From positions 277-64,276 of the IMG/VR virus record IMGVR_UViG_3300028563_000022: DNA of 64,000 bases; one strand, given 5' to 3'. Both the position numbers and the translations under genes were made by a program. How positions within the stretch are numbered: position 1 is the stretch's first letter; each line of letters begins with the position of its first letter. Positions 39,708 through 42,700 of this stretch are shown piece by piece. The notes beneath the pieces are model-generated. The model did not search any database. It saw only the letters and a program-made list of their open reading frames with translations, and was not told where the DNA came from. The stretch is from a virus (lineage: Duplodnaviria > Caudoviricetes).

Positions 39708-42700
39708 TTTTTGTACCTATTTGCACGGTAGCCCTCGGCAGCAATCGGGCACCCAACGGCCCAAGCCGGAGGCTCGGACATGATGGCCTCGTATTCCTCG
39801 ACCGAACCGAAGCCGATGGGCACCTCAGACACCGCTTCGTCATGGACATGGATGACCGGGGGATAGCCGTGGTCTTCCAAGCGAATCAGGGCGTCGGTGA
39901 GGATGTCCCGGCTGGCTGCTTGGGTACAATTTTCGCATAACAATCCACCATATAGATGATGCGGCATGAATTTATTTGTCATGCTATCAAGACCCCAAAA
40001 CGTCACCACAGCCTTCTTCTGGCCCCAGGGGGTTTCCTTCTCTTTGACATCAGGCTTGTAGTAATGGAGGCACCGGCCGCTGGGGAGTTTGCACCGGAGG
40101 AACCGGCCATCGGACAGGTACTTGATGCTCCGATAACCCCAGACCTTCCCCGGCTCGCGCACGGCATTGATGCAGGCCTCTTCCAGCCCAGCCCAGAGAG
40201 CAACGATGTACGGACGCTTCTGGCGCCAGAGCTGCTTGATTATGTCGCAGGCAGTGGCCGCGTCGTGGGACATGACTCCGGGGTTCTTCTTGACGTAGTT
40301 GAGTGCGGTCTTGGTGGCCTGTTCCATGACTCCGTAGGGGGTGAGGGGGAAGATGTGTTCTGGGAGGGATTCGAGGTCTATGCCATAGTTCTTGGCCATG
40401 GCCGCGTAGGCTCCAACGCCTCCTTGGTACCCACAGTTATGGACGAGGCAATCGGAGACTGTGAACCTGTTTCTTTGGCCAGCGTTCAGGATATCGTATA
40501 CCCGAGCTGTGCGAGTCGGAGGCGTATCCTCTCCCAGCCCTTCCGTTTGTCCAGAACTGCTTTGTACGCCAAACCTATGATGGCCTCCTTCGGATACCCC
40601 GCCAGAAGATACTTGGTCGTTCTCCCGAGACTGTAGGGGCTGCTGGTCGTCGCCCATTCTGCATCGGGGGTAGTTATCTTCGATCGGCGTTGGTTGCGCT
40701 GATTCTCCCTTCTGGTAATGTACCGCAGGTTCCCCGGCTCGTAATGGCCATTGTTGTCTATCCGATCCAGTTCCATCTCCCTGTGCAGCCCCAAGGTTTC
40801 CTGAATCCAGAGTGCAGCTTGCAGAACTGTGGGGAACTTGAATTGAATCCCCCTGGCGCCGTAGTTCGGCCAACCTTGGTCCTTGGTGTTCTGGCATCGA
40901 CTCTTTGCGGAGGTCATCCGTTTTGTGAGCCAGAGCGGAACCCTCCGAGGTTGAGAGCACGCTTGACAACCTTTGCTTATCCCCCGAGTTAAATTGCCTA
41001 GAAATGTCCAGCCCGTTTTCCCACATCCTGTGCAGCGAACAGCCACATACACTTCCGCCCAACCTCGGTGGTATCTGCGCTCCGGGGATATTATCTCCAC
41101 CCACCCGTAGCGGCGTCCCACCTGCTCCTGATTGAAGGAGATGTTGTCCGCAGGAGGCGGCGAATCCAAGCTGTACTTGCTGACATTCCCCGAGGATGCC
41201 GGGACTGGCCCACACGGTATGGTCTTCTGTTGCTGTGAGACCTTGGTAAGTAATAACGGAACGAATACCCCTGGAAATAACACCATCATGAGCAACGAAC
41301 GCGGTTCCATCCCACACCTTCATGTTAATTGTGACGTGTTGGATAGGAACAAGTCCAGCATCAGTTAAAACTTGTTCGTCTTCAGCGATACATGCGAGTT
41401 CTACTGTCTTCCCGATCTGCCTTTCTGCTTTCGTGACTTCCGGGGCAGTCTTGTTGAACATCTGCGCCGCAGCTATTTTGTATATGTCCTGCTTGTTCCA
41501 AAATGCCTCAAGCACGGATTCTTCCCCTGCGATCCAGGCGTTGACCCGGGCCTCGATGGAGGAGAAGTCCGCAGAGATGAGGTCATGGCCGGGCTTGGCT
41601 ATCAGCATCCCCCGGATGCACGTTGACGCCGCCCCAAGGGTGTCCTCGAAGAGGGTGGTGAACCAGTCATCGAACCCGTTCTCGTGGGCTGCTGCTACGC
41701 AGTGTTCTATGTCAGAAAATAGGCCACGCGGGAGATTTTGTGGCTGGAATATGCGGCCACTGAATCTTCCCGTGGCTGCGCCATGATACCTCATCGTCCC
41801 CCTGATACGTCCATCCGAGGACGCGGCCCGGCGCAGCGCGTCATACTTGGCCGTGCTGGCCCGGCCGAGCTGCTGGCGTATCTCCAGAAAGCGTCGAGCA
41901 TGTTCTGGCAAGCCCCCCCTCATTAAGGCCTCGGCCACGCTGTTCTTGGTCAGGTCCACCAGCCCCACACCCATCAGGGCCAGCCACTTCAAGCTCTTGT
42001 CAATCTTCTTGGGGGAGTCCACCGCGCCGCTGGTCAGGACCTTGGTCTCAGCGAGCAGCTTCTCCTCGTACTTTCCGATCTCCAAGATGAAGACATTCAC
42101 CGAGGCCTGGTCAATCTGTATGCCCCGGGCGTTGATCTCCTGGTCCAGTTGCCACACTTTAAGTTCGGATGCAGGAAGGTCGGGAAGCGCCTGGGATACC
42201 GCGTGCTCCGTCTCAACGTCCTGGAGGCAGTATTCACACAGGCGCACGATGTCTTCGGGCTTCTCGTGCCAGAGGTAATACGCAGGAGCGCCATAAGGAG
42301 GCTCGATCATTCCATCGGGTTTAACCAGACATCCTGCTGCCTCAAGTTCCGCGCGCTCCTTCTTCAGCGGTTTCCTGGGCTTGCACATTTTCATCATGAG
42401 CCGGTTGCCGGCCATGTCTTTCTGGATGGGGAGCTCCAGGGCCTTGGCCGCCTGGTCGAGAGAGCGGGGCAGGGCGTGGTAGGCACACTTGGCCAGGGAG
42501 CAACGGAGCTTCTTGGGGTCAGGTTCGGGCCAGCCATACTTGCGGGTGGCACACCAGGACCAAACCGCGCGCTCGAAGCCCGCGTTGTGGCATTCAATTT
42601 CGTCGGCCTTGCGGAGGAGGTCAAAAAGGTCATCATCCTCCAGAATTTGGTCCGCAAAGTCAGTGCCTTCTGGCGGGTCTGTGCGCAGGATGCGCTCGGC

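Follow-up and report, generated by a model that had tools for sequence, protein, structure and literature searches.

Endonuclease genes that lie within an intein without sharing its reading frame have precedents. Out-of-frame or antisense endonuclease genes occur in inteins of actinobacteriophages (bioRxiv 10.1101/2025.01.02.630785), and that preprint proposes that a free-standing endonuclease invaded an intein; it also cites Dalgaard et al. 1997 for canonical inteins with an in-frame HNH domain. A cyanobacterial dnaX intein contains a LAGLIDADG endonuclease that is out of frame (Phillips, DeSimone & Gogarten, bioRxiv 10.64898/2026.09.14.751524), a report that credits Gorbalenya 1998, 'Non-canonical inteins'. 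Related arrangements are the ShiLan element, a hidden out-of-frame HNH endonuclease within a phage gene for a DNA methylase (Arsenault et al., Genes 2025, PMC11855218), and the fractured genes, in which a free-standing endonuclease gene is located between the halves of a split intein (Dassa et al., NAR 2009, PMC2677866). A layout of the kind described below is already known, from Gorbalenya 1998 as cited and from the preprints of 2025–26. Here we report on a 64,000-nucleotide (nt) stretch of DNA from a virus of the Caudoviricetes (IMG/VR record IMGVR_UViG_3300028563_000022, positions 277 to 64,276; referred to as the window), in which a gene for a family-A DNA polymerase contains an intein and, within the intein, in the +1 frame of the same strand, a gene for an HNH-like endonuclease.

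The source record comprises 64,276 bases, is 100% complete according to the CheckV estimate, and originates from a rhizosphere metagenome. A previous, sequence-only reading of the locus had proposed that an HNH endonuclease is overprinted on a polymerase intein and expressed from an internal ATG or by ribosomal frameshifting. This interpretation is partly supported by our results, its core being right and its start codon wrong. Taken as a whole, an intein with an overprinted, selected and internally initiated HNH-like homing endonuclease is the explanation that we prefer, with a probability of roughly 0.8.

Results

The polymerase and its intein

The polymerase open reading frame (ORF; Table 1) matches Pfam DNA_pol_A at amino acids (aa) 318–504 (E=4.9e-22). 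In PHROG it matches phrog_17 DNA polymerase (E=2.8e-96) and, at aa 884–1065, phrog_10285 and phrog_7766, such that both ends of the protein are covered. Translation of the polymerase is likely to start at ATG 42850 ('MRLTLDYET') rather than at TTG 42901.

The intein interrupts the polymerase after the upstream segment GKTVELA. Its junctions read ELA↓CIAED at the N-terminal end (arrows mark splice junctions), the Cys1 codon being TGT 41392–41390, and VHN↓C at the C-terminal end, from where the polymerase continues as CGYQGG. The insertion segment, K...ELA↓CGYxGG in general form, presumably is polymerase motif B, a name that no tool assigned. Residues 55–58 form the TxxH motif TEDH, which we take to be block B. 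In an alignment of 26 in-frame intein relatives C1, T55, H58 and N319 are invariant, and these inteins end in HN, SN, GN, FN or AN, with C, S or T as the next residue. A structural model built on an alignment with 25 in-frame relatives shows two confidently predicted lobes of a Hint domain, and the best 50 rows of a Foldseek search with this model are inteins or related Hint-type autoprocessing domains (probability up to 1.00, best E 5e-3), for example NpuDnaE with a root-mean-square deviation (rmsd) of 2.8 over 103 columns. No row at E≤0.001 was present among the matches listed, as disorder extends over more than half of the model. Thus, the 319-aa intein with intact splicing ends that had been recognized in the sequence is corroborated by Cys1, TEDH, VHN↓C and a predicted Hint fold. 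Given that the host gene is essential and the splicing blocks are intact, the intein presumably splices.

A very different picture was obtained for the in-frame middle of the intein, for which the absence of an endonuclease motif had been noted before. Residues 103–287 have a predicted local distance difference test score (pLDDT) below 50 and no predicted secondary structure, and no family was found for this part in Pfam or NCBIfam. Neither a tblastn search of the linker against 50,697 phage records nor a blastn search of the locus region against the phage collection returned a match. Across relatives the linker is poorly conserved, except for the motif DRQQ(W/R)xLR, which is a shadow of the nuclease gene.

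An HNH-like nuclease in the +1 frame

On the same strand, the +1 frame contains an open stretch of 274 codons that extends from 41310 to the stop codon at 40486, and the polymerase frame contains no stop, which agrees with the approximately 800 nt of dual openness reported earlier. Homologues exist for 636 nt of the shifted frame (41121–40486), the last codons of which overlap the coding region of intein block F. The predicted 211-aa product (P0003) matches two PHROG families that are both annotated as HNH endonuclease, phrog_374 (E=1.2e-19) and phrog_3377 (E=1.8e-18); a match to phrog_1035 'endonuclease VII' (E=4.9e-4) is its sole link to that group. Among proteins of similar length 163 homologues were found at E≤0.001, with a top identity of 65%.

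An AlphaFold model of P0003, for which 39 homologues served as alignment (40 sequences including P0003), has a mean pLDDT of 91.3 and not a single residue below 50. It consists of an N-terminal beta domain with four cysteines, a beta-beta-alpha core and a C-terminal helical domain. The four cysteines presumably form a zinc ribbon. In and next to the core, residues D119, R120, G130, N131 and N143 are invariant in the 40 aligned nucleases, and P0003 has lost none of the residues that are invariant or near-invariant across the family. The location of N131 in the hairpin and of N143 on the helix presumably fits the roles of the asparagines in HNH enzymes. In the protein atlas P0003 falls into unnamed viral clusters whose neighbours include proteins with NUMOD-type homing-endonuclease modules, an observation that we regard as a lead only. 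A stretch of 46 nt (40722–40767), coding for the core sequence DRIDNNGHYEPGN, recurs with 5 differences in otherwise unlike contigs from three rhizosphere runs; the nuclease core therefore appears to be conserved at the nucleotide level in other elements.

The sequence-only reading had described the product as a complete HNH endonuclease ending at 40486. The stop position is confirmed, and the beta-beta-alpha core and the two asparagines fit this description, whereas the canonical histidine is replaced by arginine. Because this replacement is family-wide, Pfam HNH is silent and the match to the HNH enzyme PacI is weak, we call the product HNH-like and not a canonical HNH protein.

The overprinted layout recurs in relatives

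The arrangement is not confined to the window. Our set of 85 loci, 80 of which were added by a scan of IMG/VR, corresponds to 60 clusters at 90% identity. In 28 of these the nuclease is embedded in a host frame (f+2) without any stop, the stop-free stretches extending over 349–1366 codons; this number includes one cluster (L075) that is ambiguous since all its frames are open at 64% GC. The third frame of the embedded clusters has on average 5.9 stops per 100 codons, and the host frame stays open even at 36–38% GC, where the third frame has 21–24 stops. The nuclease of 29 further clusters is free-standing; here the f+2 frame contains on average 10.6 stops per 100 codons. One candidate for an in-frame fusion, locus L076 with a stop-free stretch of 536 codons, was rejected as a free-standing gene in GC-rich DNA, and no nuclease in frame with an intein was found among the 85 loci. 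Thus, the HNH frame is conserved relative to its host at least as far as these 28 of the 60 clusters are concerned.

The host frame is f+1 in two clusters, represented by Salmonella Jerseyvirus BPS11T2 and EBPR siphovirus 2. In these phages the polymerases (L003, 915–4013, and L004, 828–3965, respectively) contain a related nuclease in the +2 frame, and the intein of L003 is placed four residues earlier ('GKA↓C...HN↓CELGLGY'). A paper on Jerseyvirus (PMC8425127) mentions inteins, and its accessible text does not mention the frame.

Phage isolates are well represented in the family. For Streptococcus phage Javan113 and Gardnerella phage vB_Gva_AB1, tblastn places the nuclease inside the annotated polymerase coding sequence; the offset, 1 mod 3, equals that of the window, and both polymerase frames are open. 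In total 375 phage records match the nuclease, 148 of them from Salmonella phages, and 25 of the best 30 matches fall under a polymerase annotation. The Mycobacterium phage matches listed are free-standing hypothetical proteins of phages of approximately 155 kb.

Selection acts on the nuclease frame

Both frames are held open, and our data support purifying selection on the nuclease protein together with stop avoidance in the polymerase frame. When the nuclease ORF of the window was shuffled synonymously, such that the nuclease protein and its codon pool were kept, a mean of 7.6 stops arose in the polymerase frame and none of 2000 shuffles was stop-free; the third frame over the nuclease contains 8 stops, as expected. 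Likewise, none of 2000 shuffles was stop-free for 8 of 11 other loci, the exceptions being L005 (1/2000), L027 (1.4%) and L004 (0.75%).

Ratios of nonsynonymous to synonymous substitution rates (dN/dS) were determined with 19 gapless relatives (18 unique), in which the intein comprises 927 nt and the nuclease starts at intein nt 259. Over the overlap, the ratio is 0.081 in the nuclease frame versus 1.115 in the polymerase frame, as calculated from the 31–38 of 153 mutually non-independent pairs that passed a filter of 70–99.5% nucleotide identity (Table 1 also lists the third frame, the exteins and the N-terminal Hint lobe). Variable columns within the overlap are found at 190 of 208 host codon positions 1, which correspond to nuclease position 3, as opposed to 107 of 208 and 85 of 208 at the other two positions. 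Of the dual-frame selection that had been postulated, the constraint on the nuclease protein is thus recovered in relatives by dN/dS, and stop avoidance in the polymerase frame is recovered in the window by the shuffles.

Selection of the linker for hydrophilicity was considered as well and is not claimed. Compared with synonymous shuffles its hydropathy has a mean z of −0.9, with 6 of 25 loci below −2 and the window at −0.5, which is a weak effect.

A conserved start codon inside the intein

An ATG, TTG or GTG is present at the first residue of the nuclease ('VGxQ[YF]G') or one codon earlier in 20 of 21 cluster representatives, namely those whose alignment reaches nuclease residue 1 (read by eye). 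The preceding codon is ATG in five and TTG in nine representatives, and leucine is encoded there by TTA in one and by CTN in none; the overlapping residue of the polymerase frame varies between I, V and F. On this basis GTG 41121 is the likely nuclease start in the window. The ATG codons 41289 and 41286 favoured by the sequence-only reading are not conserved, and its other option, a ribosomal frameshift, finds no counterpart in a slippery site (inspection by eye, no formal scan). Gene callers predict ORFs of 246–250 aa whose initial ATG results from reading the conserved block-B codons Y(D/E)G in the +1 frame; this ATG is absent from the window. In locus L005 the block-B shadow ATG is the sole upstream in-frame ATG. 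No sigma-70-like promoter was found within 40300–41600. Based on the conserved start codon and on the lack of a promoter inside the intein, internal initiation on the polymerase mRNA is the best reading of how the nuclease would be made.

Possible mobility of the intein–nuclease unit

Wherever the unit of Hint domain and nuclease occurs, its offset is 1 mod 3; besides the ELA↓CGY site of polymerases it occupies further sites and further genes, including a DEAD/ResIII helicase (P0142). The in-frame intein matches 417 longer proteins. Among the 120 of these that were listed, 63 cover 99–100% of the intein, nearly all of them with Pfam DNA_pol_A and one being a DEAD/ResIII helicase; they probably carry the +1 gene too. 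The other 57 cover 28–31% of the intein (one 75%), and three that were inspected (P0187, P0174 and P0155) are mini-inteins at the polymerase site used in the window. The mini-intein of P0155 retains approximately 20 codons of the 5' part of the nuclease gene.

Four related polymerases (P0155, P0174, P0187 and P0191) have a second intein at 'VEN↓C...HN↓CVQA(T/I)ARD', which in P0155 and P0191 bears the shadow motif of the HNH-like nuclease; the corresponding site of the window (approximately 39860–39890, 'CEN-CTQAASRD') is empty. Over 797 aa P0191 and P0187 share 99% identity, and over their last 113 aa 97%, yet the two polymerases differ by a cassette of approximately 174 aa in the second intein. 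To judge from the two protein sequences, the nuclease segment has recently been gained or lost here. An uninterrupted intein site was found in a related polymerase with 41% identity to that of the window, and a search for close intein-free alleles of the window polymerase returned only two distant loci. In a distant relative (L087) a change of frame close to the motif B region seems to interrupt the polymerase.

Taken together, mini-inteins, cassette and empty site fit a homing element that gains and loses a nuclease cassette. Since free-standing relatives (29 clusters), mini-inteins at the same site and the cassette difference between P0191 and P0187 all exist, an origin by invasion of a mini-intein by a free-standing HNH gene is plausible, with the direction, gain or loss, left either way.

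Neighbouring genes

Directly upstream of the polymerase, a 495-aa ORF on the minus strand (42841–44328) contains the motifs 'FPCQDLS' and 'ENV', which we take as hallmarks of C5 cytosine DNA methyltransferases; at its end it overlaps the likely start of the polymerase. Three ORFs follow downstream, likewise on the minus strand (37574–38542, 38497–38862 and 38826–39707). By their motifs they presumably are genes of nucleotide metabolism, one being ThyX-like ('RHR...SQESTRY'); among them are also a small 'MKRIYLAGPY' protein and a protein of 293 aa with a CPNACPWC motif.

Table 1. Features of the polymerase–intein–nuclease locus in the window, and substitution ratios in relatives
Feature	Position	Strand	Description
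Family-A DNA polymerase precursor ORF	39704..42901	-	1065 codons from TTG 42901; ORF list, Pfam and PHROG
Polymerase C-extein	39704..40435	-	opens with the +1 Cys codon TGT 40435-40433
Class-1 intein	40436..41392	-	957 nt, 319 aa, in frame with the polymerase; Cys1, TEDH, C-terminal HN, +1 Cys
N-terminal Hint lobe, intein aa 1-100	41093..41392	-	pLDDT 78-98, beta strands, conserved columns
In-frame linker, intein aa 103-287	40532..41086	-	polymerase-frame shadow of the nuclease gene; predicted disordered
C-terminal Hint lobe, intein aa 290-319	40436..40525	-	blocks F/G, ending VHN; pLDDT 89-96, conserved columns
HNH-like endonuclease gene, +1 frame (P0003)	40486..41121	-	211 aa, likely GTG 41121 to TGA 40488-40486; PHROG families, homologues, fold
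AGGAG, Shine-Dalgarno-like pentamer	41125..41129	-	3 nt upstream of GTG 41121; putative function
Four-Cys cluster C30, C33, C52, C55	40957..41034	-	each at least 90% conserved in 40 sequences
Beta-beta-alpha core ELDRIDNNGHYEPGNLRYITRRENQRN, aa 117-143	40693..40773	-	strands 117-120 and 132-135, helix 137-143; pLDDT >90
Overlap, nuclease frame			dN/dS 0.081
Overlap, polymerase frame			dN/dS 1.115
Overlap, third frame			dN/dS 1.03
Exteins, polymerase frame			dN/dS 0.04-0.06
N-terminal Hint lobe, polymerase frame			dN/dS 0.21

Discussion

A model for the locus

We propose that the polymerase is made as a precursor which carries the class-1 intein at K...ELA↓CGYxGG. The two Hint lobes of this intein (aa 1–100 and 290–319) would be joined by approximately 185 aa that have no protein function of their own and represent the read-through of a separate gene, that of the 211-aa HNH-like endonuclease in the +1 frame of the same strand (41121–40486). 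According to this model, selection acts on the nuclease protein in the +1 frame, and the polymerase frame is kept stop-free only, which is sufficient for the precursor to be translated through and for the intein to excise itself. Most probably, internal initiation at GTG 41121 on the polymerase mRNA would yield small amounts of the nuclease, whose most probable role would be that of a homing enzyme that cuts intein-less alleles and thereby spreads the unit of intein and nuclease.

Several observations weigh against this explanation. P0003 matches no family of Pfam or NCBIfam, the HNH models of Pfam being absent even at E≤10; a search of PDB sequences with the family profile gave only two chance-level rows (E>1), and Foldseek of the nuclease model against PDB gave nothing at E≤0.001. 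In VIA-align, PacI (3m7k_A) aligns with a Z of 5.0 and an rmsd of 3.3 over 75 residues (model positions 58–144), a weak match that is tied with an unrelated chain (Z 5.3). The general-base histidine of canonical HNH enzymes, at the end of strand 1, is an arginine (R120) in 40 of 40 aligned members. The Shine-Dalgarno spacing is poor family-wide, with AGGAG only 3 nt away from GTG 41121 and GGAG or GGAA abutting the ATG or TTG starts in relatives, and one representative (L005:3001) has CAG GTC at the conserved start position. The hydropathy test revealed no firm sign of selection on the linker beyond stop-freedom. Finally, the dN/dS pairs are non-independent, and the relatives from which they were drawn are 44–51% identical to the window nuclease and lie outside the window's own lineage.

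Other explanations were considered as well. The DNA comes from a metagenome assembly, and the probable source run is the only one that covers the stretch of 40200–41600 completely (with 0 differences); two compensating sequencing or assembly indels might thus have displaced a normal in-frame HNH domain. Partial coverage of the region, including the frame junction at 40947–41210, comes from short contigs of three further rhizosphere runs, and these agree with the window without differences or gaps, so that the reads give no indication of the indel errors for which they were to be checked. Moreover, an offset of 1 mod 3 with a stop-free host frame is found in 28 independent clusters including isolate phage genomes, the nuclease is in frame with the intein in 0 of 85 loci, and nucleotide variation in relatives changes phase at the junction. 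A sequencing or assembly error is effectively refuted by these data, and we assign it next to no weight. As to the function of the +1 protein, R120 in place of the general base in all 40 members, the silence of Pfam HNH and the weak structural likeness to HNH enzymes would also suit a DNA-binding protein that is not a nuclease, for example one with a regulatory task or one by which another nuclease is recruited. This is unlikely in view of the PHROG HNH endonuclease families (E=1e-19), the beta-beta-alpha topology with its invariant N131 and N143, and the fact that the top nuclease match, PacI, is itself an HNH enzyme and likewise is not known to possess the canonical histidine. In addition, the family is distributed in the manner of homing endonuclease genes, with free-standing copies in phages and nested copies in inteins of several genes and sites.

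Expression of the nuclease could be achieved by a programmed ribosomal frameshift from the polymerase frame, yielding a fusion of N-extein, N-terminal Hint lobe and nuclease. Compatible with this idea, the 63 codons upstream of GTG 41121 are free of stops in the +1 frame of the window, and the Shine-Dalgarno spacing is unfavourable for internal initiation. Yet the window junction has neither an X XXY YYZ heptamer nor a stop- or rare-codon +1 site (again by eye, no formal scan), and relatives have a stop in the nuclease frame 23–40 codons upstream of the conserved start, which would confine any frameshift to a short, unconserved stretch. As 20 of 21 representatives keep a start codon where the nuclease begins, despite a variable host residue there, frameshifting appears very improbable. 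The nuclease might also be a relic of a late stage in the homing cycle, at which the intein is fixed and the ORF, though no longer expressed or active, has not yet decayed. Decay products do exist among relatives, as exemplified by the mini-inteins at the same site and by P0155 with its approximately 20 residual 5' codons, and the poorly spaced AGGAG of the window's GTG and the missing catalytic histidine could be read in the same way. We consider this improbable, however, because the window ORF is full length, keeps all invariant and near-invariant residues and has a predicted fold at a pLDDT of 91, because the nuclease frame is under strong purifying selection in relatives, and because arginine replaces histidine throughout the family and is not a lesion of the window copy. 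An intein with an expressed, overprinted HNH-like homing endonuclease thus remains our preferred explanation.

Implications

Two genes share approximately 640 nt at this locus, and it is the nuclease frame that bears the constraint at the protein level. The polymerase frame needs nothing but stop avoidance because the intein linker needs no structure. Annotation is affected by this arrangement, as gene callers either miss the nuclease or start it at a spurious upstream ATG (the +1 reading of block B), and the polymerases concerned seem to hold a junk insert. Given that the family is common in isolate phages, expression, homing and splicing are amenable to tests in standard hosts.

It is tempting to go one step further and to speculate that the Hint domain and the +1 HNH-like gene form a single, widely mobile composite element that has spread to several sites and to at least two families of phage replication genes, with the nuclease being produced from a conserved internal ATG, TTG or GTG, and that this element is a living intermediate. 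We regard this wider view as tentative and somewhat less probable than its opposite. If it were true, free-standing homing endonuclease genes would be connected through this element with mini-inteins (via loss of the cassette), with split 'fractured' genes (via a stop arising in the host frame) and with canonical intein nucleases that are in frame (via an indel). Direct tests of the 'splicing first, nuclease later' model of intein origin would then come within reach because relatives are present in culturable phages of Salmonella, E. coli, Streptococcus and Gardnerella.

Comparison with known systems

Our literature searches retrieved no paper on the PolA/+1 HNH-like family; supplements, which possibly list related cases, were outside their scope. 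Canonical HNH inteins also pair an intein with an HNH-type nuclease in phage genes, with the difference that their nuclease is a domain of the intein polypeptide, a situation encountered in 0 of our 85 loci. Fractured genes (PMC2677866) likewise have an endonuclease of free-standing type at the intein insertion point, the 3' end of which overlaps the C-terminal intein coding region. There, however, the host gene is divided into two ORFs whose products are spliced in trans, whereas the host frame described here has no stops and the intein is contiguous. The ShiLan element (PMC11855218) resembles the present locus in that an HNH gene is overprinted in a stop-free host ORF and a GTG start is proposed, the mode of translation being an open question there. 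By contrast, ShiLan has no splicing domains and its insert stays in the mature methylase, whereas the intein would remove the insert from the polymerase.

Among inteins, the dnaX case (bioRxiv 10.64898/2026.09.14.751524) shares the overlapping ORF, a low dN/dS in the nuclease frame together with a raised one in the extein frame over the overlap, and the coexistence of mini-intein relatives. Its endonuclease is of the LAGLIDADG type and is encoded by a +2 ORF in a cellular gene, as opposed to an HNH-like enzyme in a phage polymerase. Closest are the actinobacteriophage inteins (bioRxiv 10.1101/2025.01.02.630785), in which, too, the splicing blocks flank a nuclease gene on the same strand but in a different frame, no structure is recognisable for the in-frame middle, the shifted frame folds, and hosts include a DNA polymerase. 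Those nucleases are called endonuclease VII-like and are located in 'reading frame 3', and the polymerase that hosts them is DNA polymerase III alpha. The gene studied here uses frame 2 (+1), resides in a family-A polymerase and belongs to the 'DRxD' HNH-like family of PHROG 374/3377; the two families may overlap. As the general architecture is already present in these preprints, what our study adds is not a new principle but a large new family.

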